Notes: a model not told the origin generated them from the sequence alone. A stretch of 41,752 bases of DNA from Candidatus Limnocylindrales bacterium (GCA_036386115.1 DASVJA010000109.1:1-41752), one strand, 5' to 3'. Positions 8,721 to 24,851 are shown, numbered from the stretch's first letter. Numbers and translations are program-made.

Positions 8721-9155
8721 TCAGATGGCGCGACGGCCGGCCCTTCTGGCCAGGGCGACATGTATGCCGGCCTCCAGCTGGGCCAGCGTATACGGCTTGT
8801 TGATCAGCAGCGCCGTGTCGATGTGTGATGCGAACAACTCACTGACCAGCTCCGGCGAGTAGCCGCTGGTGAACAGGACGGCAGTCTCGTGGTGATGACG
8901 GCGCACGGCCCCGGCCAGGGCCGGGCCGCGCATGCCGGGCAGCATCACGTCGGCCACGAGCAAGTCCAACGGTGCTGTGCGAAGGGCGGCAATCCTCTCG
9001 GCCTCATTCCCGTCTGTGGCGACTGTGACCCGGCAGTGAAGCCTCCGAAGCCATGTGGCGGCCAACAGGGCGACGCCGGGATCGTCCTCGACGAGAAGCA
9101 CGCTGAGATTCCGGGCCAGCGTATGGGGCTGCGTTGATTGTTCCTGTGAGTCCAT
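8721..9155 (-). CDS. Stand-alone response-regulator receiver domain protein (CheY-like)
   Basis: It has the canonical residues: 'LLVEDD', phospho-acceptor in 'DLLVADVMLPGM', 'LFTSGY' and 'LINKPY'. There is no output domain. Confidence 0.8.
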   Translation of the reverse strand: MDSQEQSTQPHTLARNLSVLLVEDDPGVALLAATWLRRLHCRVTVATDGNEAERIAALRTAPLDLLVADVMLPGMRGPALAGAVRRHHHETAVLFTSGYSPELVSELFASHIDTALLINKPYTLAQLEAGIHVALARRAGRRAI

Positions 9156-9447
9156 GGCACACGACCTTACGACTGGTCGAGGTTAGTCCGATTCCTGCGT
9201 AACTCGATGGGAAATGCGGCGGATTTCATTGCAATGTCGTGAAGAATGGGGCTGATGGCAACGGGCCGATCCTCGCGGCGGACCCCGACGCGTCGGCGGC
9301 GTTGGCGGAGGCGACGGGACACGTGCGCCTGCGTATCTCCGGCATGCGAGAATTGCGCCCCAGGCTTTCGATCGCTCGAGTGTTCGACCGTTCGGCCGCC
9401 GATTCGCCCGCCCAATAACCGCATCGCACCAGGCAATTCCAGCGCCT

Positions 9448-10902
9448 GTGCTCGAGGAGACCGCATTGACCGCCGACAAGCCAGAAGTCCAGGCCGACGA
9501 CCCGGGGCCATCCGTCGCGAACCTGGAGACGATCGTCTCGCTGAGCAAGCGGCGCGGCTTCATCTTCCCGAGCTCCGAGATATACGGCGGCATCAACGCC
9601 GTCTGGGACTACGGGCAGCTCGGCGTGGAGTTGAAGAACAACGTTAAGCGGGCCTGGTGGCGGGCCATGGTTCAGGAGCGGACGGACATCGTGGGGCTGG
9701 ACGCCAGCATCATCATGGCGCCCCAGGTTTGGGTGACCTCCGGCCATGTGGCCAACTTCACGGACCCGTTGGTGGAGTGCACGACCTGCCGCCGCCGCTA
9801 TCGCCTCGATGAACTGCCGGGCTGCGAGAATCTGACCAACACGGAGTTGATGGACCCCGAGGTCATCGACCGCCTGGGCCTCAAGTGCCCGGCCGATCAG
9901 GGCCCGCTGAGCGCCCCGCGCCGCTTCAACCTGATGTTCAAGACCTACATGGGCCCGGTCGAGGAAGAGGCCGCGCAGGTCTATCTCCGCCCGGAGACGG
10001 CTCAGGGCATATACGTCAACTTCAAGAACGTTCGCGAGACCGCCCGCAAGAAGCTGCCGTTCGGCATCGCTCAGATCGGCAAGGCTTTCCGCAACGAGAT
10101 CAGCCCCGGTAACTTCGTCTTCCGGATGCGCGAGTTCGAGCAGATGGAGATGCAGTATTTCGTGAAGCCGGAGACGGCGGCGGCCGCGTTCAACGATTGG
10201 AAGCCGCGCCGGATGGCCTGGTATGTGCGCTACGGCGTCAATCCGGCCCGTCTGCGCTTCCGCCAGCACCGTCCGGACGAACTGGCTCACTACGCGAAAG
10301 AAGCCTGGGACGTCGAGTACCGCTTCCCGTTCGGCTGGAAGGAACTCGAGGGCATCCATAACCGCGGCGACTGGGATCTCGGGCGGCACCAGGAGGCCAG
10401 CGGCGAGAACCTCGAGTACTTCGACCCGGCGACGGAGGAGAAGTACGTCCCGTGGATCGTCGAGACTTCCGCGGGCGGTGACCGCGCGGCCTTCACCTTC
10501 CTGATCGACGCCTACCGTGAGGAGGAAGTCCGCGGCGAGAAGCGCGTGGTACTCGGGTTCAACCCGGAGCTGGCGCCGTACAAGGTGGCCGTCTTGCCGC
10601 TGCTCAAGAAGCGCGAAGAGATCGTGGCCAAGTGTCACGCTCTGCGCGAGGACCTGGCCCAGGACATGATGGCCGTCTACGACGACACCGCGGCGATCGG
10701 CAAGCTTTACCGGCGCCAGGACGAGATCGGCACGCCCTGGTGCGTCACGATCGACGTCGACTCGCTGGAAGACGGCCAGGCGACCATCCGCGATCGAGAC
10801 ACGATGGAGCAGATCCGAGTCGATCTCTCGCAGGTCAAGCCGTACATCGAGGAACGCCTGGCGAAGGCTCGCATGCGGCCGGAGGCTGTTCCGCAGCCGT
10901 GA
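9448..10902 (+). CDS. glyQS: Glycine--tRNA ligase (dimeric alpha2 class II GlyRS)
   Basis: 'IVSLSKRRGFIFPSSEIYGGINAVWDYGQLGVELKNNVKRAWW' is the hallmark GlyQS N-terminus, and class II motifs and an anticodon-binding domain follow. The start may instead be TTG 9466, which sits 6 nt after a GAGGAG Shine-Dalgarno. Confidence 0.93.
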   Translation: MLEETALTADKPEVQADDPGPSVANLETIVSLSKRRGFIFPSSEIYGGINAVWDYGQLGVELKNNVKRAWWRAMVQERTDIVGLDASIIMAPQVWVTSGHVANFTDPLVECTTCRRRYRLDELPGCENLTNTELMDPEVIDRLGLKCPADQGPLSAPRRFNLMFKTYMGPVEEEAAQVYLRPETAQGIYVNFKNVRETARKKLPFGIAQIGKAFRNEISPGNFVFRMREFEQMEMQYFVKPETAAAAFNDWKPRRMAWYVRYGVNPARLRFRQHRPDELAHYAKEAWDVEYRFPFGWKELEGIHNRGDWDLGRHQEASGENLEYFDPATEEKYVPWIVETSAGGDRAAFTFLIDAYREEEVRGEKRVVLGFNPELAPYKVAVLPLLKKREEIVAKCHALREDLAQDMMAVYDDTAAIGKLYRRQDEIGTPWCVTIDVDSLEDGQATIRDRDTMEQIRVDLSQVKPYIEERLAKARMRPEAVPQP

Positions 10903-12134
10903 GTTCGGCGTCGGCGGCCGACAAGGCGCAACCGGCCCCTGCGGCCGGAGCGCGCGACTGGCCGTTCCGGACGAAGCTCGGCCGGTTGCCCCTGCCGCCG
11001 AAACGCGTTCGGCTTTGGGGCATGGCGCTGGCCCTTCTCGGTATCGTCCCGATAGATACCGCCGTCCAGAATGGCGGGGCTGACTTCCCCGCGTTCTGGG
11101 CCGGTGGTGGAACCGTCGGAACGCTCGACCTGGTGGATCCTGCCCGGCATATCGCCTGGCAGGCGGCTCACGGCGTGCCGATGCTGGACTGGCCGTATCC
11201 GCCCGCGGTTGCGTATCTCTATGCGCCTATTGCCCCGCTGCCGATCTGGTCAGGCTTCGTGATCCACGCCGTGGTGATGCTGGGTCTCGTGGCCCTGGCC
11301 GGTCTGCTGGCGGCGCGCGCCTTTGATCTCGCCCCGAATGTGGCTCTGCTCCTGGCGTTTGCGTGGGCGCCCTGCACCGCCGGTGCAGTCATGGGCCAGA
11401 ACGCGCCTCTCGCCGTCGTGCTGGCCCTGTGGGCGATCGATGCCCTGCGGCGTGACCGACCCATCGAGATCGGCCTGGCATGTGGACTGATGATGTACAA
11501 ACCCACTCTGGCGCTGCCTCTGATCGGGTTGCTGGTGCTGCGCGGCCGTTGGCAGGCCCTCATCGTGACCGGTGCGGTTGTCGCGGCCGGCTATCTGGCG
11601 AGTGTGCCGGCCGCGGCGGGGGACTGGGGCTGGCCCATGGCCTGGTGGAACGGTCTGCAGCCGTGGCTGGCCCGCGACTTGGTCGGCAATGCGGACAAGG
11701 CGATCAGCGTTCCGGGCTTGATCGGGCGCCTGCCGGGGGTGCCGCCGTGGCTGCCCAATGTCAGCGCGGCGACGATCGTGTTGCTCGCCCTGCGAGGCCT
11801 GCGGCGCGCCCCGATCGTTGAGGCCGGGGCCGCAGCTTGTTTGCTGGCTCTGGCCGTGGGGCCGCGTGTATGGGGTTACGAGGCGGGCCTGATGCTGCCG
11901 ATCATCGTCTGGGTCGCCGCCGGCGGCGTTTCGGAGCCGTGGCGGACGCGGCTCGTCTTCATCACCTTGCCGCTGGGCCTCTTCTGGCTCGTGTCTGAAT
12001 TCACCCTTGTCAGCGGCGTGGCCGTCGTGGTGATCGTGGCCACGGCGCTCTGGCTCTGGCGCTGGCGTCCGTTCGGACCGGAGCCGCGGTTTGAGCTCCG
12101 CGCGCGGACCATCGACCCGGGATCTGCGGCGTGA
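10899..12134 (+). CDS. GT87/DUF2029-family polytopic membrane glycosyltransferase (GT-C fold), paralog 1
   Basis: Multi-TM protein collinear with the next gene ('DFPAFW', 'YPP', 'GQNAPLA', 'MYKPTLALP', 'EPWRTR' are shared). Alignment to paralog 2 ('LPLPPKRVRLWGMALALLG' vs 'LPLRIARRRFWLWSIGLAAA') requires a start upstream of ATG 11022. GTG 10899 overlaps the glyQS stop (GTGA). Confidence 0.72.
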   Translation: MSSASAADKAQPAPAAGARDWPFRTKLGRLPLPPKRVRLWGMALALLGIVPIDTAVQNGGADFPAFWAGGGTVGTLDLVDPARHIAWQAAHGVPMLDWPYPPAVAYLYAPIAPLPIWSGFVIHAVVMLGLVALAGLLAARAFDLAPNVALLLAFAWAPCTAGAVMGQNAPLAVVLALWAIDALRRDRPIEIGLACGLMMYKPTLALPLIGLLVLRGRWQALIVTGAVVAAGYLASVPAAAGDWGWPMAWWNGLQPWLARDLVGNADKAISVPGLIGRLPGVPPWLPNVSAATIVLLALRGLRRAPIVEAGAAACLLALAVGPRVWGYEAGLMLPIIVWVAAGGVSEPWRTRLVFITLPLGLFWLVSEFTLVSGVAVVVIVATALWLWRWRPFGPEPRFELRARTIDPGSAA

Positions 12135-14187: not shown

Positions 14188-15699
14188 CTAGTGCGCCGCC
14201 GCGGTCTCGCTGACGATCTCGATCGGGGCCGGCAGCTCGCCGCGCAGATACTTGTCGATGTTCTTGGCCGCGTTTTTGCCGTCACCCATGGCCAGGATGA
14301 CCGTGGCCGCGCCGCGGACGATGTCTCCGCCGGCAAAGACGCCTTCCATCGAGGTCTGCAGGTTTGCGTCGATCTCGATGTAGCCCCACTTGTTGACCTT
14401 CAGGTCCGGAGAGGTTGAGGTCAGCAGGGGATTGGACTTGGTGCCGATGGCGACGATGACCATGTCGCACTCGAAGATGAACTCCGAGCCGTGGATTTCG
14501 ATGGGGCGGCGACGGCCCGACGCATCGGGCTCGCCCAGCTCCATGCGAACGCACTTGAGGCCGGTGACCCAGCCCTTGTCGTCGCCCAGCACCTCGACGG
14601 GCGCCACGAGGAAGTCGAACCGAACGCCTTCCTGCTCGGCGTGGTGGACTTCTTCGGCCCGGGCCGGGAGCTCGTCACGCGAGCGGCGGTAGACACAGAC
14701 GGATTCGGCGGCGCCGAGGCGGCGGGCGGTTCGCACGGAGTCCATCGCCACGTTGCCGCCGCCGACGACCGCGACACGCTTGCCGTGGAGAATCGGCGTG
14801 TCCGATTCCGGGTTGTAAGCGCCCATCAAATTGACCCGGGTCAGGTACTCGTTGGCGGAATAGACGCCCTTGAGGTTCTCCCCGGGCACGTTCATGAAGA
14901 CCGGCAGCCCGGCTCCGACGGCCACGAAGACCGCGTCGAACTGCTCGCGCAGTTCAGGCAGGGTGTATGTCTTGCCGATGATCTGGTTGGGTCGGATCTC
15001 GACGCCATCGGCGACCAGCCGGTCCACTTCCTTCTGGACGATGTCCTTAGGAAGGCGGAACTCCGGGATGCCGTAGAGCAGGACGCCGCCGGCGGCGTGG
15101 AAGGCCTCGAAGATCGTGACCTTGTGGCCGCGCTTGGTCAACTCGCCCGCGGCGCTGAGGCCGGCCGGGCCGGAGCCAACGATGGCGACGGTCTTGCCTG
15201 AAGGCGCAGGCTGTGCGTCGACGAAGGCGTCGCGATTATTGAGGGCCCAGTCGGCGACAAAGCGCTCGAGATTGCCGATGCCCACGGGTGTGCCGGTCTT
15301 GGCTCGGAGGCAGACTTGCTCGCACTGGGTTTCTTGGGGGCAGACGCGGCCGGTGACACACGGCAGAGCGTTGTCGCTCAGCAGCGAGTCCGCCGCGCCC
15401 TTGATGTTGCCCTCGCTCAGGAGGCGGAGGAAGTTCGGGATGTTGACGGCGACGGGGCAGCCGTCCATGCAGAAGGGCTTGGGACACTGGAGGCAGCGAT
15501 CGGCCTCCATGATCGCCAGCTGCTCCGTGTAACCGAGGTTGACCTCGGCGAAGTTCCTGGCGCGCGCCATGGCGTCCTGCTCTGGCATGGCACCGCGCTG
15601 GATCTTCATCCGCTCCTTCTTGGGGAGCGGTTCGTGGTTTGCGGCAGAGCGGCCGGCCAGGGTATCGATGATCTCGTCCATGTTCCTCGGCTCGGTCAT
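14188..15699 (-). CDS. nfnB: NfnB/GltD/SudA-type FAD- and NAD(P)H-binding iron-sulfur oxidoreductase (glutamate synthase small-subunit-like)
   Basis: The ATG at 15699 gives 'MTEPRNMDEI...'. Cys clusters 'CLQCPKPFCMDGCP' and 'CVTGRVCPQETQCEQVC', plus two Rossmann motifs 'VAIVGSGPAGLSAA' and 'VAVVGGGNVAMD'. ATGA overlap with the upstream subunit. The Arg-rich 176 codons upstream in the ORF track overlap nfnA and are not coding. Confidence 0.9.
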   Translation of the reverse strand: MTEPRNMDEIIDTLAGRSAANHEPLPKKERMKIQRGAMPEQDAMARARNFAEVNLGYTEQLAIMEADRCLQCPKPFCMDGCPVAVNIPNFLRLLSEGNIKGAADSLLSDNALPCVTGRVCPQETQCEQVCLRAKTGTPVGIGNLERFVADWALNNRDAFVDAQPAPSGKTVAIVGSGPAGLSAAGELTKRGHKVTIFEAFHAAGGVLLYGIPEFRLPKDIVQKEVDRLVADGVEIRPNQIIGKTYTLPELREQFDAVFVAVGAGLPVFMNVPGENLKGVYSANEYLTRVNLMGAYNPESDTPILHGKRVAVVGGGNVAMDSVRTARRLGAAESVCVYRRSRDELPARAEEVHHAEQEGVRFDFLVAPVEVLGDDKGWVTGLKCVRMELGEPDASGRRRPIEIHGSEFIFECDMVIVAIGTKSNPLLTSTSPDLKVNKWGYIEIDANLQTSMEGVFAGGDIVRGAATVILAMGDGKNAAKNIDKYLRGELPAPIEIVSETAAAH

Positions 15700-16532
15700 G
15701 AGGCTGCCTGCGGATGCTCTTCGGTCCAGCGGGCGAGCGCCGCCTGCTCGGACTCGCGGTAGGTGGTGAGGCGGTCCGCCATCTGCCGGAAGTCGACCTT
15801 GTGGCCGTCGAATTCGGGGCCGTCGACGCAGGCGTATTCCGTCTTGCCGTCGATCGAGACGCGGCAGCCGCCGCACATCCCGGTGCCGTCGATCATGATC
15901 GAGTTGAGCGAGACGGTCGTCTTGATTGCGAACGGCCGGGTCAACTCCGAGCAGGCCCGCATCATCGGGACCGGCCCGACGGCGTAGACCTCGCCGATGC
16001 CGCCGGCTTCGCAGAGTTCCTTGAGCGCTTCGGTCACGAAGCCGTGGCGGCCGTAGCTGCCGTCGTCCGTGCATACGATCACGTCGCCGCAGGCCTTGAG
16101 CTCTTCCTCGCAGATGACCCATTCCTTGGATCGCCCGCCGATGACGCTCGTCACCTTCACGCCGTTGGCCGCCAGGGCCTGGGCGATGGGGTAGACCACT
16201 GCGGTACCGACGCCGCCGCCGACGCAAACTGCATGGCCCGATTCCAGCAGCTTTGTTGGGTTGCCGAGCGGGCCGGCGATGTCCTGGATCGAGTCGCCGA
16301 CGTTGAGGCCGGTCAGCTCAAAGGTGGTCTTGCCGACGGCCTGGATCACGAGCGAGATGGTGCCGGATGCCTTGTCCACGTCCGCGATGGTCAGCGGGAT
16401 GCGTTCGCCGCCGGGGCCACTCCGCACGATGACGAACTGGCCGGGCCGGCGGATCTGCGCGATTCGCGGGGCTTCCACGACGAGCCGGGTGACGTTCGGC
16501 GACAACTGCTCTTTGGCGACGATCGGGTGCAT
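15696..16532 (-). CDS. nfnA: NfnA/SudB/PyrK-like FAD and [2Fe-2S] ferredoxin-NADP reductase-type subunit
   Basis: 278 aa. FNR-like barrel ('RRPGQFVIVR', 'RIPLTIAD'), an NAD-binding fold ('VCVGGGVGTAVVYPIA') and a C-terminal Cys cluster 'CGGCRV...YACVDGP'. This is the standard partner of a GltD-like subunit. Confidence 0.9.
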   Translation of the reverse strand: MHPIVAKEQLSPNVTRLVVEAPRIAQIRRPGQFVIVRSGPGGERIPLTIADVDKASGTISLVIQAVGKTTFELTGLNVGDSIQDIAGPLGNPTKLLESGHAVCVGGGVGTAVVYPIAQALAANGVKVTSVIGGRSKEWVICEEELKACGDVIVCTDDGSYGRHGFVTEALKELCEAGGIGEVYAVGPVPMMRACSELTRPFAIKTTVSLNSIMIDGTGMCGGCRVSIDGKTEYACVDGPEFDGHKVDFRQMADRLTTYRESEQAALARWTEEHPQAAS

Positions 16533-17357: not shown

Positions 17358-17882
17358 TCAGCCGGTCGCCTCGAGCAGCTTCATGACTGCTGCCGCGGCT
17401 GCCGGGACGGAGGCCTGAACCGCCGGACTCAACCCCTCCGCGAACTCGTCCCTGGCCTCTATCTGGATTGTGACCGTGTCGATCCGGTCCGGCAGGTCGG
17501 CGCCGAGCCGGCGGCCCAGTTCCAGGGCGGAGTCGAGCGACACGTCGTGGGCCGAGTCGAGGTGGCCGGCACCGCCGCCCTCAAGGTCGGAGAACGGTCC
17601 GGAGCGGACCTCACCTAGTGGCCGGCCGGGGAATTGGGCGGCATCGATGAAGATCGCGGCGTCGTAGCCGGAGACCGTCTCCATCAGCGTGAGGCCACCG
17701 ACGCCGAGGCGCTCAATGCGCACCGCCGGCATTGTCCGGCCGGCCGCCCGCGCCGCACCGAGCGCCGCCTCAACCTCATCCGCGACGCGCCAGCCCACGC
17801 CGTCGTCGCCGAGCACGGGATTGCCCAGGCCGATGACGATGATGCTGGTTTGCGAGGCGCTCGTTGGTTGGTTGGCCGGCAT
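17358..17882 (-). CDS. [NiFe]-hydrogenase maturation endopeptidase (HycI/HybD/HoxW family)
   Basis: 'IIVIGLGNPVLGDDGVGWRVADEV' is the family N-terminal signature. Candidate Ni-ligand positions are present (Asp in GDDG, Asp in 'IFIDAA', His in 'DSAHDVSL'). Confidence 0.85.
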   Translation of the reverse strand: MPANQPTSASQTSIIVIGLGNPVLGDDGVGWRVADEVEAALGAARAAGRTMPAVRIERLGVGGLTLMETVSGYDAAIFIDAAQFPGRPLGEVRSGPFSDLEGGGAGHLDSAHDVSLDSALELGRRLGADLPDRIDTVTIQIEARDEFAEGLSPAVQASVPAAAAAVMKLLEATG

Positions 17883-17978: not shown

Positions 17979-18371
17979 TTATTCGCCCGGTTCCGGAACC
18001 GGCTTGTACCACTCCTCGTGGCCGGGGCGCTGACCCTGCGGGCCTACGTCGGCGCGAGTGTGAACTGGCTTGGAGTTCTTGGACATGGTCAGGCTCTTCT
18101 TGGAGCAGACCTCTACGCACACGTTGCAGCCGATGCAGGTGAGATGCTCGATGGCCCAGTAGCCGTTCTCGCGCGAGACGGTGATTGCGGCGGCAGGGCA
18201 GCGCCGGGCGCAGAGCATGCAGTAGTTGCACGTCTCCACGTTGTACTCGATGGTCCCGCGCGCGCCGTCGAAGCGCTCCCGGATCTCGTAGGGATAGCGC
18301 CGGGTCGCGGGCTTTGAGAAGAGGTTCTTCAGCGCCCGAGGCACCATTGGCAAGGTCAATGGGTTGGCCAT
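17979..18371 (-). CDS. echF: Ech-type hydrogenase 2x[4Fe-4S] ferredoxin subunit (EchF / NuoI-like)
   Basis: The ATG at 18371 gives 'MANPLTLPMVPRALKNLFSKPATRRYP'. Two CxxCxxCxxxCP motifs ('CNYCMLCARRCP', 'CIGCNVCVEVC'). It starts 1 nt after the echE stop. Confidence 0.88.
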   Translation of the reverse strand: MANPLTLPMVPRALKNLFSKPATRRYPYEIRERFDGARGTIEYNVETCNYCMLCARRCPAAAITVSRENGYWAIEHLTCIGCNVCVEVCSKKSLTMSKNSKPVHTRADVGPQGQRPGHEEWYKPVPEPGE

Positions 18372-18372
18372 C

Positions 18373-19458
18373 TCAGCGCTCCGTGCAACTGATACAGGGG
18401 TCGATGGTGAGGATGATGTTCGGCACATCCGCCAGGTCCGAGCCCTTGACGAGCTTGATCATGGCCGGGATGTTGGCGAAGGTTGGGGTGCGGGCCCGGA
18501 ACCGCTCCAGGTTCTTTGTTCCGTTGGCCTTGACGTAGTAGAGGACCTCACCGCGCGGCTGCTCGAGCCGCGTGAAGACTTCGCCCTGCGGGTTGCCGCG
18601 GGGACGGATCTCGAGGGCCTGATCGTCGCCCTTGGGCATCTTCTCGATGGCCTGCCTGATGATGTCGATCGACTGCTCGATCTCGCGCATCCGGACGACG
18701 ACTCGCGCCAGGCAGTCGCCGGCGGTCTCGACCATCGGCTCGAACTCGATGCGGTCGTAGTAGTTCTTGCCGGCAAGGCGGGTGTCCACGGCAAGGCCGG
18801 AGGCTCGAGCCATCGGGCCGACACAATCCACTGCCGCGGCGTCCTCCATGGAGAGGATGCCGACGCCGCCGAGCCGGTGGTTGATCGAAGGATCGGTTCC
18901 GAAGACGTGGGCCGTCTTCTTGAATTCCTTGCCGAGGTCCTGAAGCTGCACCAGGATCGCGGCCAGCTCCGTGTCGCTCATGTCGCGCTTTACGCCGCCG
19001 ATGCGGTTGACCGAATGGATGATCCGCCCGCCGGTGGTCTTCTCGAAGATGTCGAGGATCTCCTCGCGCATCCGCCAGCAGTGCATGAACAGGTTCTCGA
19101 AGCCGAAAGCATCCGCGCCCAGACCCAGCCAGAGCAGGTGGCTCTGAATCCGGGAGATCTCCGCCCAGATCAGGCGCAGCCAGGCGGCCCGCTCGGGGAT
19201 CTCCACTCCCATGATGCTTTCCAGCGAGACGCAGTAGCCCATGCCGTGCATAAAGCTGCAGATGCCGCAGATGCGCTCCACTACGAAGCCCATCTCTGTG
19301 TACTCAACCCGCTCCACCATCATCTCAAGGCCGCGGTGGATGTAGCCGATCGTGGGGATCGCGTCGACGACCTTCTCGTCCTGCAGGATCAGGTCCAGAA
19401 CCAGCGGCTCCGGCAGTACAGGATGCTGCGGCCCGAACGGAACGACGGTCGTCTTCAT
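18373..19458 (-). CDS. echE: Group 4 [NiFe]-hydrogenase large (catalytic) subunit (EchE / NuoD-like)
   Basis: 361 aa. The N-terminal Ni-Fe ligand motif 'RICGICSFMH' and the C-terminal 'DPCISCTER' are both present. The protein terminates exactly at the Arg of DPCxxCxxR. Confidence 0.95.
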   Translation of the reverse strand: MKTTVVPFGPQHPVLPEPLVLDLILQDEKVVDAIPTIGYIHRGLEMMVERVEYTEMGFVVERICGICSFMHGMGYCVSLESIMGVEIPERAAWLRLIWAEISRIQSHLLWLGLGADAFGFENLFMHCWRMREEILDIFEKTTGGRIIHSVNRIGGVKRDMSDTELAAILVQLQDLGKEFKKTAHVFGTDPSINHRLGGVGILSMEDAAAVDCVGPMARASGLAVDTRLAGKNYYDRIEFEPMVETAGDCLARVVVRMREIEQSIDIIRQAIEKMPKGDDQALEIRPRGNPQGEVFTRLEQPRGEVLYYVKANGTKNLERFRARTPTFANIPAMIKLVKGSDLADVPNIILTIDPCISCTER

Positions 19459-19964
19459 GCGTTCTTCTCCGAAGCGGCGGTTGCAGCCGGGCCGGCCGCA
19501 CCGGCCGCCGGTGCCGTGGTGGCGGCGAGAGCCGCGGCGGCAGTTGCCGCAAGCCTCGCCTTGACCGCCTGGTGCGAGAACGGGATCTTGGTGGCCGTCT
19601 GATAAAGCTGACCCTGCAGGTCCAGGTTCAGGCCGGTCACGTTGATGCCGAACAGCTCGCGGATCTCGTTCTCGTAGAGAAACGCCGCGCCGAAGAACTC
19701 GGAGATGCTCGGAACCGCGTCGCCGACCGTGATCTGCTCGCGGATCAGCTCGAGGTCGCTGCCCTTGGCGAAGGCCCAGGCGATCTCGAAGACGCCGGGT
19801 GCCTCTGCCGCCGGCGTGGTCGGCTCGTCCGGATCTTCTTCGTTGGCCGCGGCGCCGTGCTTTGGCGCCGTCGGCGCCATCACGGTCGTCACATTGATCA
19901 GTGCCAGGCGCCAGCCGCCCTTCTGGTACTCGCCGACTTTGGCGAGGAACGTCGCGCTATCCAT
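19455..19964 (-). CDS. echD: Ech-type hydrogenase NuoC-like subunit (EchD)
   Basis: The ATG at 19964 gives 'MDSATFLAKV...'. NuoC-type motif 'FLYENEIRELFGINVTG'. It carries a P/A/E-rich insertion and an Ala-rich C-terminal tail. ATGA overlap with echE. Confidence 0.8.
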   Translation of the reverse strand: MDSATFLAKVGEYQKGGWRLALINVTTVMAPTAPKHGAAANEEDPDEPTTPAAEAPGVFEIAWAFAKGSDLELIREQITVGDAVPSISEFFGAAFLYENEIRELFGINVTGLNLDLQGQLYQTATKIPFSHQAVKARLAATAAAALAATTAPAAGAAGPAATAASEKNA

Positions 19965-20392
19965 CAAGCCGTCTTCTTCCGTTTCTCTTCGAGGGCGGCG
20001 ATGCCCTGCACGACTCCGTCGATGATGCTTTCCGGCCGGGCGGCGCAGCCGGGGACGTAGACGTCCACCGGGACCACCTTGTCGATCCCGCCCTGGATGT
20101 TGTAGGCGCGGGCGAAGATGCCGCCGGAGCAGGCACACGCGCCGACCGCGACGACGACCTTGGGATCGGGCATCTGGCGGTACAGGTTCTGAATGATTTC
20201 GATGTTCCGCTCGTTGACGGAGCCCGTCACGAGCAGGATGTCGGCGTGCTTGGGGTTGCCCGTGTTGAGCACCCCAAAGCGCTCGACGTCGTAGAGCGGC
20301 GTCAGGCAGGCCAGGACCTCGATATCGCAGCCGTTGCAGCTTGAGCCGTCGTAGTGGAGGATCCAGGGCGAGCGACTGAAGTTGGACATCAT
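19964..20392 (-). CDS. echC: Ech-type hydrogenase small subunit (EchC / NuoB-like, [4Fe-4S])
   Basis: The ATG at 20392 gives 'MMSNFSRSPWILHYDGSSCNGCDIEVLAC'. 'GACACSGG' and 'VPGCAARPE' are the NuoB/HycG-type cluster ligands. Confidence 0.92.
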   Translation of the reverse strand: MMSNFSRSPWILHYDGSSCNGCDIEVLACLTPLYDVERFGVLNTGNPKHADILLVTGSVNERNIEIIQNLYRQMPDPKVVVAVGACACSGGIFARAYNIQGGIDKVVPVDVYVPGCAARPESIIDGVVQGIAALEEKRKKTA

Positions 20393-20394
20393 GT

Positions 20395-21249
20395 CTACCT
20401 GGCTACAAGGAAGAGGACCAGGACGTTGCCTCCGGAGAAGAGGAGCGTCGCGATCCAGGTGGAGCGGAGCACGAGCTGCCACTTGATGCGTGAGGTGGAG
20501 TTGTCCACCAGGATTTCGAGGAAATAGGCGACGAGGAAGACCACGACGCCCAGGGCGATGCTCCAGTTGAAGAGCAGAACGACGAAGGTCGCAAGCAGGG
20601 CCGACTCGTACCAGTGGGCAAGCTCCACGTAGGCCAGCATTCGGCCGGACATGTCCGTTGTCAGGCCGCTGACCAGTTCCTGGTGCGGGTGATGGGAAGT
20701 GGAGATGTCAAAGGGCGACTTCCGCAGCTTGATCGTGGCCACCATCAGGAAAGCCAGGACCACGCCGGGGAGTTCAAGGGCCACCAGGTGGCTGGAGGCC
20801 ATTACGCCCGCAAAGCTGCTCTGGCCGGTGACTTTGCAGACCGCGGCCATCATCAGGATGAAGAATGGCTCCGAGGCCAGCATGACGATCAGTTCGCGCT
20901 CGGCGCCGGCGTTGGAGAAGGGCGAGTTGACCGACCCGGCGGCCAGCACCAGGAAGAGCGCCGAAAGGGCAAAGACGAAGGCGCAGAAGATGATGTCCGT
21001 CCCGCTCAGCAGCAGAAGCCCGGTGATGGCCATGAAGGCCACGTGTCCCAGGATCAGCGGCTCAACGACGGGGTTGACCTGACGGGCCTGCTTCTGGAGC
21101 AGCTTGCCGAAGTCGTAGAAGGGCTGGAGTAGGGGAGGCCCGACTCGGCCCTGCATTCGGGCGCTGATGATCCGGTCGAATCCGACCAGCAGCCCGCCGA
21201 AGATCGGGGCCAGGACTACGAAGAGAATTCCGGCGATCCAGGCAAACAT
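20395..21249 (-). CDS. echB: Ech-type hydrogenase integral membrane subunit (EchB / NuoH / HycD-like)
   Basis: 284 aa. 'RIISARMQGRVGPPLLQPFYDFGKLLQK' is the NuoH/HycD signature. About 8 TM helices. 1-nt overlap with echA (TGATG). Confidence 0.9.
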   Translation of the reverse strand: MFAWIAGILFVVLAPIFGGLLVGFDRIISARMQGRVGPPLLQPFYDFGKLLQKQARQVNPVVEPLILGHVAFMAITGLLLLSGTDIIFCAFVFALSALFLVLAAGSVNSPFSNAGAERELIVMLASEPFFILMMAAVCKVTGQSSFAGVMASSHLVALELPGVVLAFLMVATIKLRKSPFDISTSHHPHQELVSGLTTDMSGRMLAYVELAHWYESALLATFVVLLFNWSIALGVVVFLVAYFLEILVDNSTSRIKWQLVLRSTWIATLLFSGGNVLVLFLVAR

Positions 21250-23174
21250 CAGCGGACCACCATTCCAGTTACGACCATTGCGATGAGCACTCCCGCGCAG
21301 GTTGCCGTTCCGAGCCGGAAGATGAGCGACCCGTTGATTACGCCGTCCAGGTAGTAGCTACGCAGGCTCACGGTACGGGTGCCGCCCAGAGCGGCGCCCA
21401 TCACGTGTTGGGCGTTGGTGTTCCGGCCACTGGAGTAGAAGTCGGAGGTGTCATAGCTGCGGTGCGATGCCCAGATCGCGAGAAGCGGCAGGAAAAGGAC
21501 CGCGGCCAGCAGGACGACCAGCATTGCCGGCTCGATGTTGAGCAGCGTTCGCGGGGCTTGATTGAAGGCGCCGAGCGCCCACGGGCTGATGACCTTGTCC
21601 GAGATCGGCATGATCAGGGCCGTGAAGGCGAGGACGCCGATCGCGAGGGCGCTCTCGGTGAACCACTCATAGCGGGTAACGCGGCCCTCGATCGAGCGCT
21701 CGTACTCGCCGATGTTCTTCATGGAAAGAACCTTGATCAGCAGCTTGCCCCAGTAGAAGATCGTGAGCGAGCTGCCGAAGGCCATGATCAGGATCATTAC
21801 GGCGCCCTGACCGCCCGGCACGTTGAGGAAGGCCCGGATGGCCGCCCACTTGGCGATCACGATTCCGAACGGGGCGATGAACATGCCGGCCATGCCGACC
21901 AGCGCGAGAACGCTGACCCTGGGTAGGCGGCTCAGGAGAGTGTCGAAGTTCTCCATGTCCTTGGTGTAGAGCCGGTTTTCGATCGTGCCCACCACGAGGA
22001 AGAGGAGGCCCTTCGCCAGGGCGTGGAAGATGATGATCATCACGCCGACCCACATCAGTTCCGGTCCGCCCACGCCGGCGCAACCGACGACCAACCCCAG
22101 GCTGCCGATCGTTGAATAGGCCAGAACCTTCTTGGTGTTCTGCTCGGTGACTGCCACCAGCGAAACGAAGAGGAATGTCCCCAGGCCGACGAAGGCCACC
22201 AGATAGCCGACCGGGGTGGTGGCGATGGCCGGCGAAAGTCGCAGAAGAAGGAAGACGCCCGCCTTGACCATAGTGCTCGAGTGGAGCAGGGCCGAGGTGG
22301 GGGAGGGTGCGTACATGGCGCCGAGCAGCCACGAGCTGAACGGCATCTGGGCGCTCTTGGTTATGCCGGCGAGGCAGAGAAGCGCCACGGCGCCGAGCAG
22401 CACGCCCGAGGCAGTTCCCTTGGTCAGCTCGGAGAGCTCCAGGCTCTGGCCGTTGGTGGCGAGGATCGCGATCGCGATGCCGAACGCCAGGCCGCCGAGC
22501 AGGTTCATGTTGAGGGCTTTGAAGGCGTAGCCGATCGTCTCGTTGGTGCGGGTGTAGCCGATCAGCAGGAACGAGCAGAGGGTGGTGATCTCCCAGAAGA
22601 GCAGCATCATCGGCAGGCTGTTCGATGTGACCAGGCCGAACATGCCGGCGAGGAAGACGAACAGGAGCGAGAAGAAGACGTTGCGGCGACCCTTGATCAT
22701 CGGGCTGGCGCGGTGGTAGTCCCTCATGTAGCCGAGGGCGTTGATGCAGATCAGCGTCCCGATAATCCCGATGATCAGGACCATGATCATGGAGAGGCGG
22801 TCGAAGTAGAAGAGGCGCTGGGCGTCGATCTCCGGCATGCGGCCGGTCAGCTCCAGCCAGAGCGCGATGCCGAGCTGGACCAGCGCCATGGCCGGAGCGA
22901 GGAAGCGGCGGTTCGCCAGGCCGATCACCACGATGAACGAGGTCATCGCGATTTCGGCTGCCAGTAGCGCGTAGCCCGGCTCAATCCCGTTCGGGAGGCC
23001 GAAGAAGATGCCGTCGCCGTTGCCGAAGGTCACGACCGTGACGATCGAGGCGACGATGATGGATGCGCCGCCGAGCAGCACGAGCGGATTGCGAATGGAC
23101 GCCCGCGTCACGAGCAGCAGGACTGCGCCAAGCAGGAGCGGGAATGCGATCAGGAATGCAACGAGTGAGCTCAT
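21249..23174 (-). CDS. echA: Ech-type hydrogenase antiporter-like membrane subunit (EchA / NuoL-M-N / HycC-like)
   Basis: 641 aa, polytopic, with the Mrp/NuoL-type proton-conducting core ('FWEITTLCSFLLIGY', 'SSTMVKAGVFLLLR', 'AYSTIGSLG', 'IFHALAKGLLFL'). Confidence 0.9.
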   Translation of the reverse strand: MSSLVAFLIAFPLLLGAVLLLVTRASIRNPLVLLGGASIIVASIVTVVTFGNGDGIFFGLPNGIEPGYALLAAEIAMTSFIVVIGLANRRFLAPAMALVQLGIALWLELTGRMPEIDAQRLFYFDRLSMIMVLIIGIIGTLICINALGYMRDYHRASPMIKGRRNVFFSLLFVFLAGMFGLVTSNSLPMMLLFWEITTLCSFLLIGYTRTNETIGYAFKALNMNLLGGLAFGIAIAILATNGQSLELSELTKGTASGVLLGAVALLCLAGITKSAQMPFSSWLLGAMYAPSPTSALLHSSTMVKAGVFLLLRLSPAIATTPVGYLVAFVGLGTFLFVSLVAVTEQNTKKVLAYSTIGSLGLVVGCAGVGGPELMWVGVMIIIFHALAKGLLFLVVGTIENRLYTKDMENFDTLLSRLPRVSVLALVGMAGMFIAPFGIVIAKWAAIRAFLNVPGGQGAVMILIMAFGSSLTIFYWGKLLIKVLSMKNIGEYERSIEGRVTRYEWFTESALAIGVLAFTALIMPISDKVISPWALGAFNQAPRTLLNIEPAMLVVLLAAVLFLPLLAIWASHRSYDTSDFYSSGRNTNAQHVMGAALGGTRTVSLRSYYLDGVINGSLIFRLGTATCAGVLIAMVVTGMVVR

Positions 23175-23176
23175 GG

Positions 23177-23563
23177 TCAGTGGGCTCCCGGCAACAGATG
23201 ATCGACTTCGTAACTCAGGACGTCCGTGGAGACCGGCTTCTCCAGGTAGCGCTGGACCGGCAGCCAGCCGTCGCGGTCCTGCTTTGAACGTTCGCTGCGG
23301 GTGAAGTGCTCATCAGCGCGCGTCAGCATGATCAGCGGCAGAGTGGGGAAGTCCTTGGCGAGGGATCGGGCGAGGTCGAAGCCTGCATAGGCTCCGTCCA
23401 ACATGCCTTCCATCACGACGAGATCCGGGACCTCGCGGTGGATTAGTTCGGTGGCTTCGGCGGTTGTGGAGGCTGAGGCGACGGTATGACCGAGCGCCTG
23501 GAGGGCGGCGACGTTGCCGGATACCAGCTGGGTGTCGTCGTCCACGAGGAGGATGTGTGCCAT
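23177..23563 (-). CDS. Atypical stand-alone receiver-domain protein, first cistron of the ech operon
   Basis: 128 aa. 'ILLVDDD', 'LIMLT' and 'YLEKP' are conserved, but the acceptor position in 'PDLVVMEGML' reads Glu52 rather than Asp. The stop is 2 nt from the echA ATG. Confidence 0.8.
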   Translation of the reverse strand: MAHILLVDDDTQLVSGNVAALQALGHTVASASTTAEATELIHREVPDLVVMEGMLDGAYAGFDLARSLAKDFPTLPLIMLTRADEHFTRSERSKQDRDGWLPVQRYLEKPVSTDVLSYEVDHLLPGAH

Positions 23564-23637: not shown

Positions 23638-23656
23638 CGTTTACGTGATTAGTAGC
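23638..23656. promoter_or_regulatory. Motif pair CGTTTACG (23638-23645) and ATTAGTAGC (23648-23656) in the ech/hyp divergent intergenic region
   Basis: These are reverse complements of the CGTAAACG and GCTACTAAT words found upstream of nfnA. They lie in the only AT-rich patch of the 230-nt intergenic region, about 75-93 nt upstream of the receiver/ech start codon. Confidence 0.35.
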
Positions 23657-23793
23657 TTATAGGTGGTACGACGGCTGGAGGCCCCGCGCTTTGGCCCTTA
23701 TGGCCGGGATATTCGGCCCTGCCCGTTTGGGACCACCCACTTTGAGAGGCGATTTGGGCGTCTTGCCTGACAAAAATGGGCTAGGATGCCGCC

Positions 23794-24141
23794 GTGCACG
23801 AGTTTTCCATAGCCGAGGCTCTCGCCGCCCAGGTGATCAAGTACGGTCCGGCCGGCGCCCGGGTCCGCGGCGTGGACATGAAGGTGGGTCCGCTTCGCGG
23901 CCTGGAGCCGGAGGCGATGGCGATGTCCTGGCAGGCCGTGACCATCGGAACAGCGCTGGAGGGCGCGGTTCTGACGATCGATCAGCTGCCCTGGACCATC
24001 ACGTGCTCCGTCTGCGGCCGGAGTTGGGAAAGCCGGGTTCCGTTCGTATCCTGTGAATGCGGCAACGAGACGCCGGCGCCGGTCGGCGGCGACGAGCTGG
24101 ATATCGTGTCGCTGACGATCGACGAAGAGGACGCTCCATGA
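23794..24141 (+). CDS. hypA: Hydrogenase nickel-insertion metallochaperone HypA
   Basis: A GTG start gives the N-terminal 'MHEFSIAEAL' Ni-binding motif. The Zn site is 'CSVC...CEC', so the second pair is CxC rather than CxxC. AGGA lies 7 nt upstream. Confidence 0.9.
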   Translation: MHEFSIAEALAAQVIKYGPAGARVRGVDMKVGPLRGLEPEAMAMSWQAVTIGTALEGAVLTIDQLPWTITCSVCGRSWESRVPFVSCECGNETPAPVGGDELDIVSLTIDEEDAP

Positions 24142-24851
24142 CCGAAGGCTCTCGGACGGTGAAGCTCCCGCTGGCGGAGCGGGTACTCGAAGCGAACGAC
24201 GAGATTGCGGGAGTGGTGCGCGCGGAATTGGCGCGCCGGCGGGTTTTTGCGATTGATTTGATCGGTGCGCCGGGGAGTGGCAAGACCGCGCTCCTGGAGG
24301 CGACTCTGCGGGCGTTGACCGAGGGCACCGCCGGTTCCGCCGCCGGCCGTCATCGCCCCGCGGTCCTCGTGGGCGACCTGACAACCCGCCGAGACGCCGA
24401 TCGCCTCTCCCGCTGGTGCGATCGAGTCGTGCAGATCTCTACCGGCGAGGGCTGTCACCTTGAAGCCGGTCAAGTGCGCGGCGCTCTCGAGGACGTGGAC
24501 ATGACCGGCGTGGACCTGCTCTTCATCGAGAACGTGGGCAACCTCATCTGCCCCGTCGGCTTCGACCTGGGTCAGAACGTCAAGGTCGGCCTGTTCAGCC
24601 TCACCGAAGGCGACGACAAGGCTGCCAAGCATCCCTACCTCGTGACCGCCGCAGACCTGATCCTGCTGAACAAGGTGGATCTCGCGCCGCATCTCACGTT
24701 CGACCGCGGGCTCTTCGAGGAGGACGTGAGGTTGCTCAACCCGAAGGTGCCGATGCTGGGGGTCTCGGCAACGACGGGCGAGGGCATAGGGGAGTGGCTG
24801 GAGTGGATCGAGTGGGGAATTGCGCGGACCCAGGGCGGAGCAGTCGCGTAG
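24138..24851 (+). CDS. hypB: Hydrogenase nickel-incorporation GTPase HypB
   Basis: ATGA overlap with hypA. P-loop 'GAPGSGKTALLE', metal-site motif 'ENVGNLICPVGFDLG' and 'LLNKVDL' (NKxD). There is no His-rich or CxxCGC N-terminal extension. Confidence 0.9.
   Translation: MTEGSRTVKLPLAERVLEANDEIAGVVRAELARRRVFAIDLIGAPGSGKTALLEATLRALTEGTAGSAAGRHRPAVLVGDLTTRRDADRLSRWCDRVVQISTGEGCHLEAGQVRGALEDVDMTGVDLLFIENVGNLICPVGFDLGQNVKVGLFSLTEGDDKAAKHPYLVTAADLILLNKVDLAPHLTFDRGLFEEDVRLLNPKVPMLGVSATTGEGIGEWLEWIEWGIARTQGGAVA

Follow-up and report, generated by a model that had tools for sequence, protein, structure and literature searches.

A glutamate-type pseudo-receiver heads the ech operon of a Candidatus Limnocylindrales bacterium

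We analysed a 41,752-nucleotide stretch of DNA from Candidatus Limnocylindrales bacterium (GCA_036386115.1 DASVJA010000109.1:1-41752; hereafter the window), in which a gene for a 128-residue receiver protein lies directly upstream of echABCDEF, the genes of an energy-converting hydrogenase (Ech). The protein is an acceptor-less (Glu) pseudo-receiver, of a known kind and outside any named subfamily, and its linkage to echA is strictly conserved and tightly coupled, beyond what chance would give. The genomic context of the family is split according to the residue at the acceptor position: Glu-types stand at complex-I-type operons without a kinase (P0146, an independent case, has a divergent Cache-type kinase), whereas Asp-types are mostly flanked by kinases. 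The partnership of these Asp-type relatives with an [FeFe]-hydrogenase-like sensor kinase points to an undescribed control of energy-converting hydrogenases.

Receiver fold and the acceptor column

The gene and its diagnostic codons, the latter located from codon positions, are:

23177..23563, minus strand: single-domain Glu-type pseudo-receiver, 128 amino acids (translation, PF00072, AlphaFold2 model with Foldseek, family alignments)
23534-23542, minus strand: codons of the acidic triad D8-D10
23408-23410, minus strand: GAA codon of E52
23318-23323, minus strand: codons of T81 and R82
23264-23266, minus strand: codon of W100
23237-23239, minus strand: codon of K109

Translation of 23563 to 23177 on the minus strand (MAHILLVDDD...YLEKPV...LLPGAH) contains every motif that the original prediction, made by a model from this DNA, had quoted, namely ILLVDDD, PDLVVMEGM, LIMLT and YLEKP. 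Residues 4-116 score 52.5 bits with the Pfam family Response_reg (PF00072; cut-off 30.2, E=6.5e-14), and an AlphaFold2 (AF2) model for which 32 sequences were aligned shows the (beta-alpha)5 succession typical of receivers, with a predicted local distance difference test score of 86.3 and a predicted template-modelling score of 0.82. The Foldseek matches of this model are ordinary receivers (3t6k, 2gkg, 6ifh and 6rh1, TM-scores 0.74-0.80). The acidic pair, the Thr/Ser and the Lys by which a receiver is recognized are all conserved, as D8, D9, D10, T81 (replaced by Ser in some relatives) and K109-P110, but in the CheY D57 column, where beta3 reaches its C-terminal end, Glu52 stands in place of the Asp.

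The placement of Glu52 in the acceptor column, as originally proposed, agrees across HMMER alignments, MAFFT, the AF2 model and homologues. In the phmmer alignment, 'VVMEGML' of the receiver is paired with 'IVLDVML' of PhoP (1mvo); MAFFT puts E52 in one column with CheY D57, Spo0F D54 and PhoB D53; beta3 comprises residues 48-51 of the model, which places E52 at the C-terminal end of the strand; and homologues of the same family bear Asp in exactly this column. The prediction had itself named Asp56 ('MLDGA') as the residue that would have to occupy the acceptor site if it were wrong. Alignment and structure both place Glu52 there, and we rejected Asp56 as the real acceptor, since its alignment column is D+4 and about ten Glu-type loci have Gly at this position. 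The prediction erred in calling the beta3-alpha3 loop shortened, since it has one residue more than its counterparts in CheY, Spo0F, PhoB and PhoP. Relative to canonical receivers the protein also has a 7-residue insertion before beta5.

With a PF00072 match and Glu at the acceptor position, the protein fits the definition of an aspartate-less receiver (ALR) or pseudo-receiver (PsR), that is, a computationally recognized receiver in which the acceptor Asp is absent (PMC12632262, PMC4395418). No NCBIfam model attains its cut-off on the sequence: CpdR scores 31.7 bits where 180 are required, and the DVU0259/DivK-type model 26.4 where 160 are.

Linkage to echA and the wider receiver family

The TGA stop codon of the receiver gene (23177-23179) lies 2 nucleotides short of the echA ATG (23174), as had been predicted, and a GGGAG Shine-Dalgarno-like element is found within the receiver gene, 10 nucleotides 5' of that ATG; no terminator was found between the two genes, where there is no room for one. 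The original prediction had suggested a survey of related genomes for this adjacency. Scanning the species-representative genomes of GTDB, we obtained 55 loci, and in all 41 Glu-type loci having both genes the receiver is directly upstream of echA. These comprise 40 Chloroflexota, mostly metagenome-assembled genomes (MAGs) of Limnocylindrales or 'Chloroflexi fen', and one Actinomycetales MAG. The gap from stop to start, measured in 40 of the 41 loci, ranges from -4 to +27 nucleotides with modes at -4 and +3; locus L023, the one excepted, has a gap of roughly 50-90 nucleotides. Beyond these 41, the Elusimicrobiaceae MAG L050 has a gap of +39 nucleotides. The genes echB, C, E and F follow in all loci that are long enough, usually together with nfnAB-like genes. 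A separate scan of metagenomes yielded 80 loci, 13 of them Glu-type, and echA is directly downstream in 12 of the 12 that could be assessed (the thirteenth ends 57 nucleotides past the receiver gene), with no adjoining kinase in any of the 13. The distance from the receiver to the first gene is mostly -4 to +4 nucleotides within the main Glu clade, as against 39-122 nucleotides in the loci outside it whose gene tables allow a reading, so that the loss of the Asp went together with a closer incorporation of the gene into the operon.

Among 5.8 billion proteins searched, 414 relatives reach E<=1e-5. The 120 that were listed are all 123-184 amino acids long, with PF00072 as the main recorded domain and, in four cases, an additional weak FleQ match. 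Across 162 Glu-type sequences E52 is invariant, and D8, D9, D10, T/S81 and K109 are kept. One could read the loss of the acceptor Asp and the lack of a kinase nearby as signs that the protein is a functionless, decaying relic of a lost two-component system. We consider this very improbable, as 32 representatives reaching down to 60% identity share 33 invariant columns, E52 included, and the gene is kept in every ech locus examined, in more than 40 species-level genomes, with frame and coupling intact.

The receiver belongs to a family whose hallmark is the one-residue longer beta3-alpha3 loop, ending in G-F, combined with the 7-residue insertion before beta5. It fits the family motif WLPVxRF(L/M)EKP, in full D-x-x-W-[LIM]-P-V-x-[RK]-[FY]-x-E-K-P, and W100, P102, K109, P110 and G61 are invariant in both Glu- and Asp-types. 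Its place immediately before echA, at the start of a group 4 hydrogenase operon, is likewise a family neighbourhood. Asp-type members (VLDVMME...) occur in Elusimicrobia, Acidobacteriota, Deltaproteobacteria and Aerophobetes. Three elusimicrobial loci (L041, L056 and L065) have the order receiver, sensor kinase, receiver-HisKA-HATPase hybrid, second family receiver and echABCDEF. Their sensor kinase is a protein of 658 amino acids with Fer4, Fe_hyd_lg_C, FeS, HisKA and HATPase_c domains, in which the H-cluster motifs P2 (GPCVAKK) and P3 (EVTSCMGCIMG) are kept and P1 has a single Cys (ATCPA). This [FeFe]-hydrogenase-like kinase, the receiver-kinase hybrid or both flank 43 of the 66 Asp-type metagenome loci, a set that includes one Asn and one Gly variant.

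Asp-type receivers are also first in Mrp/Mbh-like group 4 operons (L059, L064) and, on contig P0149, in an ech operon, and in Acidobacteriota some lie near convergent group 4 clusters. On the P0149 contig, downstream of receiver-receiver-echABCDEF, positions 9202-10963 encode a protoglobin-STAS protein, a STAS protein, an anti-sigma-type kinase and a SpoIIE phosphatase, by its gene content a partner-switching regulatory module neighbouring ech. In two further loci, L107 (75-11209) and L139 (970-8894), the genes of a trimeric [FeFe] hydrogenase of the NuoE/NuoF type precede those of one or more receivers, the sensor kinase, a family receiver and the hybrid, and in L107 the module is followed by a radical-SAM maturase-like gene and hydF.

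In a neighbour-joining tree the Glu clade of Chloroflexota plus Actinomycetales is monophyletic in 100 of 100 bootstraps, with L050 as its sister, and P0146 is nested among Asp-types; the tree thus indicates that the change from Asp to Glu arose more than once. P0146 (IIEADDEE, with the acid pair DQ; locus L063, 3155-12291) is an independent Glu-type that heads a nuo-like operon, in the order receiver, a 495-residue NmrA/epimerase-like protein and nuoA, B, C, D, H, I, J, K and L, with the Cache-type histidine kinase divergent upstream. The NuoD homologue of this locus has no recorded NiFeSe_Hases Pfam match. Other acceptor-less variants occur among the Asp-types, with Gly in L053 (8001-8351) and L083 (7001-7393) and Asn in L066 (1370-1756).

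The two types differ at further positions. At T+1 the main Glu clade has Arg, found in 145 of 164 Glu-type sequences, where Asp-types have Gly, Ala or Ser, and L55, D56, R66, A69, D84, E91, Q95, R97, G99, R105 and H122 are conserved in Glu-types only. These Glu-type-only residues lie in or beside alpha4-beta5-alpha5, the face that receivers commonly use for output. Asn17, near-invariant in both types, lies in alpha1, the usual kinase-docking helix.

Upstream of the receiver gene, the 230-bp spacer that separates it from hypA contains one further feature:

23690..23719, minus strand: direct repeat GGGCCGAA-N14-GGGCCAAA with a 22-bp period (hypA-receiver spacer, 22-locus alignment)

On the minus strand GGGCCGAA occupies 23712-23719 and GGGCCAAA 23690-23697, and TATAAG follows at 23656-23661, 28 nucleotides downstream of the repeat. 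In an alignment of the upstream regions of 22 loci that extends down to 55% receiver identity, the repeats and a TA..CT element stand out as columns conserved in at least 70% of rows. Together the repeat and TATAAG look like a putative operator and promoter, that is, an activator site and a -10 element, of a receiver-ech operon; because the conserved direct repeat resembles an activator site, a DNA-binding factor, possibly an activator, probably controls this operon. A sigma-70 consensus scan found no promoter, and the leader has no Rfam match at E<=1 that would mark an RNA element.

Candidate targets of the receiver

Because the receiver has no output domain, it would have to act by protein contact. 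The original prediction envisaged an undescribed accessory subunit or post-translational switch of the hydrogenase, and we would place the target at the Ech complex or its assembly, reached by protein contact, a reading to which we give somewhat less than an even chance. It is favoured by the stoichiometric coupling to echA together with the new conserved surface, by the fact that receivers recur as the first gene in operons of the Ech, Mbh-like and Nuo-like kinds, and by the lack of a DNA-binding partner in the modules; no DNA-binding output domain is present in the Pfam-annotated modules L041, L056, L107 and L139.

The scheme we propose starts from the descent of the receiver from a family of ordinary, Asp-containing receivers, which would exchange phosphate with a sensor histidine kinase of the [FeFe]-hydrogenase-like type and which, in some phyla, already head Ech or Mbh-type operons. 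In the Limnocylindria-type Chloroflexota lineage, where kinase genes no longer neighbour the receiver, the acceptor would have turned to Glu, with Arg at T+1; new conserved charged residues would have arisen around alpha3, alpha4, beta5 and alpha5; and the receiver gene would have become translationally coupled to echA, the receiver and the Ech subunits being made from one mRNA. Held in one, probably 'on-like', conformation, the receiver would work by protein-protein contact, and the former input of an H2 or redox signal would have given way to a constitutive, expression-coupled control of Ech or its assembly. We infer, by comparison with characterized proteins, that the receiver is not phosphorylated and rests in a fixed state that is possibly 'on-like'. 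Calling Glu52 'phosphomimetic', as the original prediction did, would likewise be an extension from other response regulators, in many of which Glu at the acceptor position is a partial phosphomimetic (PMC12632262); Glu is also the commonest replacement of the Asp in pseudo-receivers (PMC4395418, PMC12632262).

Several points weigh against Ech as the target or against a fixed active state. In some response regulators the change from Asp to Glu inactivates rather than activates (PMC12632262). The AF2 model is weakest, with a confidence of 62-68, across the family-specific insertion (residues 81-100). No fusion of a receiver with an Ech subunit is among the top matches of the 5.8-billion-protein search or of a profile search of 1.8 billion representatives, the latter being dominated by multi-receiver hybrid kinases, and all sequence data come from MAGs and metagenomes. 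Asp-type relatives also stand beside trimeric [FeFe] hydrogenases (L107, L139), and the family members of L058, L061, L062 and P0157 have no hydrogenase within reach. The family is tied to no single enzyme architecture, which favours a generic signalling target.

The family originated in a signalling pathway, and the main rival, one to be taken seriously, is therefore that the receiver serves signalling or feedback alone, which we nevertheless hold to be somewhat unlikely. Here the receiver would imitate its phosphorylated ancestor and act on an unlinked partner, not on the Ech enzyme; this could be a transcription factor, a hybrid kinase or a partner of the anti-sigma type, through which the level of ech mRNA could feed back on the expression of hydrogen-metabolism genes, hyp and ech itself among them. 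The main context of the family, a kinase-rich module of sensor kinase, receiver and receiver-kinase hybrid, fits such a role, as does the occurrence of members beside unrelated enzymes, for example [FeFe] hydrogenases, and sometimes without any hydrogenase. The conserved direct repeat upstream implies a DNA-binding regulator that would need control, and the near-invariance of Asn17 in both types would agree with a retained kinase-docking helix. However, no kinase turned up in the window when 30 open reading frames were run against Pfam, the segment 9155-10632 lying outside that scan, or when the sensor kinase served as tblastn query, and, the divergent Cache-type kinase of P0146 apart, no sensor-type kinase adjoins Glu-type loci. 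The tight coupling to echA (-4/+3 nucleotides) would also be odd for a regulator needed in small amounts.

The order of the genes could also suggest that the receiver is a helper in assembly or maturation, for example by chaperoning the insertion of EchA or the docking of the peripheral arm, being first in the operon, coupled to the gene of the membrane subunit and, in Chloroflexota, divergent from hypA and hypB. Yet outside Chloroflexota the receiver is away from the hyp genes, in one case a Glu-type is first in a Nuo-like operon in which no NiFeSe_Hases match is recorded for the NuoD homologue, and we know of no receiver that works as a chaperone. We regard this role as improbable. Much the same holds for a receiver that is still switchable, whether through binding of a ligand or metal to the DDD/E/K pocket, which is kept, or through phosphorylation of another residue. 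The acidic pocket, T81 and K109 are fully kept although the Asp has been lost, and His122 and the C-terminal His128 are conserved in Glu-types only, but Asp56, the candidate for an alternative acceptor, is not conserved, and we give such switching a low probability.

If the Ech complex is the target, one could speculate further that the receiver is a seventh, regulatory subunit on the cytoplasmic face that gates electron transfer or ion translocation, that its relatives do the same for Mbh- and Nuo-like complexes, and that Asp-types are phospho-controlled by the H2 sensor kinase, a control that the change to Glu would have hard-wired in Limnocylindria; this extended proposal we hold to be unlikely as a whole. 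Should the receiver bind Ech, it would be the first two-component-type module to act directly on an enzyme of the complex I family, and it is in any case a candidate accessory protein to seek in Ech preparations. The family links an [FeFe]-hydrogenase-like kinase with hydrogenase operons, and its Glu-locked descendant is present in every ech operon found here in a lineage that is widespread in soil, peatland and wetland. It offers defined partners for phosphotransfer with and without H2, and a natural Asp/Glu pair for work on structure and function of pseudo-receivers.

Known systems and the surroundings of the receiver gene

The receiver resembles ALR/PsR proteins such as the receiver domain of FrzS, ChxR and the plant PRRs in its PF00072 match, its (beta-alpha)5 fold and the absence of the acceptor Asp, and FrzS is among its best matches in both sequence and structure. 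It differs from them in being a stand-alone protein, in keeping all other active-site residues, in the 7-residue insertion with WLPVxR and in its place in a hydrogenase operon. With CheY-FliM, CpdR-ClpXP and DivK (compare PorX-PorL) it shares an architecture of a receiver domain only, with output by protein contact, and the switch positions T81 and Y106 are kept; CheY, CpdR and DivK, however, are phosphorylated on the Asp that the ech receiver lacks.

Control of [NiFe] uptake hydrogenases by H2 sensing is known from HupUV-HupT-HupR and HoxBC-HoxJ-HoxA, in which the regulator is active when unphosphorylated. These circuits and the receiver family have in common a hydrogenase-like sensor, a histidine kinase and a response regulator that govern hydrogenase genes. 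In the Hup/Hox circuits, though, sensor and kinase are separate proteins, the sensor being of the [NiFe] group 2b, whereas in the family a single protein combines the kinase with an [FeFe]-hydrogenase-like sensor domain. The Hup/Hox regulator is a DNA-binding protein of the NtrC type, whereas family receivers have no output domain, and the operons that would be their targets encode group 4 or [FeFe] enzymes. In Escherichia coli the hyc (group 4a) operon begins with hycA, the gene of a small regulator that acts on the activator FhlA; it too is a small non-enzymatic first cistron of a group 4 hydrogenase operon, but HycA is not a receiver and has no homology to one. To our knowledge, the regulation of group 4 hydrogenases is poorly understood beyond E. 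coli formate hydrogenlyase (FHL) and CO-induced systems, and the outputs of putative 'sensory' [FeFe] hydrogenases are not known.

A kinase-fused, putatively sensory [FeFe] hydrogenase of group C (HydS), linked to trimeric [FeFe] hydrogenases, has been noted in Elusimicrobia (bioRxiv 10.1101/765248), where the passages relevant to it mention neither receivers nor a link to Ech. Asp-type relatives are encoded beside just such a kinase-fused [FeFe] protein; the window lacks that kinase.

The remaining features of the cluster are:

21249..23174, minus strand: echA, antiporter-like membrane subunit, 641 amino acids (Pfam Proton_antipo_M, Proton_antipo_N)
20395..21249, minus strand: echB, NuoH-like membrane subunit (Pfam NADHdh)
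19964..20392, minus strand: echC, NuoB-like small subunit (Pfam Oxidored_q6; NCBIfam NuoB)
19455..19964, minus strand: echD, NuoC-like subunit (Pfam Complex1_30kDa on the enclosing open reading frame; start read from the sequence)
18373..19458, minus strand: echE, [NiFe] large subunit (Pfam Complex1_49kDa, NiFeSe_Hases)
17979..18371, minus strand: echF, NuoI-like 2x[4Fe-4S] subunit (Pfam Fer4 families; NCBIfam NuoI-like)
17358..17882, minus strand: HycI-type hydrogenase maturation protease (Pfam HycI; TIGR00072)
15696-16532, minus strand: nfnA-like gene (Pfam and NCBIfam, synteny)
14188-15699, minus strand: nfnB/gltD-like gene (Pfam and NCBIfam; synteny and start codon for the nfnA/nfnB pair)
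23794-24141, plus strand: hypA, nickel insertion, divergent (Pfam HypA)
24138-24851, plus strand: hypB, nickel insertion, divergent (Pfam cobW/HypB)

The six Ech-type subunit classes are present in the order echABCDEF according to Pfam, the label of group 4e being based on families and gene order. The tight packing that had been described for these genes is borne out by the table of open reading frames and the in-frame starts, all junctions being of 4 nucleotides or less: overlaps of 1 nucleotide at echA/echB and echC/echD and of 4 at echD/echE, and gaps of 2 nucleotides at echB/echC and 1 at echE/echF. The MrpA/NuoL-like NCBIfam matches of EchA are all under their curated cut-offs. EchE has the Ni-Fe ligand motifs CxxC and DPCxxC ('ERICGICSFMH' and 'DPCISCTER'), and its closest solved structures are MBH 6cfw_L and FHL 7z0s_E, with no solved Ech structure among its matches in the copy of the PDB that was searched.

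Canonical echABCDEF operons, as in Methanosarcina barkeri, Desulfovibrio gigas and Caldanaerobacter, consist of six genes. The window has the same six subunits, in the same order and of the same Pfam families, and differs in the conserved receiver cistron upstream and the nfnAB-like pair downstream. The original prediction had held that a receiver cistron is no part of the described ech operons, and our literature searches on ech operons indeed found none described.

The nfnA-like and nfnB(gltD)-like genes (14188-16532) overlap by ATGA, and the pair is directly downstream of ech in most Chloroflexota loci, a conservation that suggests that Ech and an NADPH/ferredoxin oxidoreductase may form a unit. 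Divergent hypA and hypB are kept in nearly all Chloroflexota loci. The hycI-type gene is a variable member of the cluster, found here and in L012 and absent in the closest relative, L001, a 'Candidatus Limnocylindrales' soil MAG whose EchA, EchB, EchC and EchE proteins are 93-98% identical to those of the window. EchE ends in ...CTER (18373-18390, minus strand) without a C-terminal extension, which leaves the protease with no obvious substrate in the cluster. The C-terminal tail of EchD (19455-19700, minus strand) is long, of low complexity and rich in Ala, Pro and Thr (…AATAAAALAATTAPAAGAAGPAATAASEKNA), which is unusual among NuoC-like subunits. The G+C content of the window is 65%. A second single-domain receiver of 144 amino acids, at 8721-9155 on the minus strand, has the canonical Asp in DLLVADVMLPG, in line with its use as a standard of comparison in the original prediction, and is related to the ech receiver only by general receiver homology (BLASTP E=0.038).

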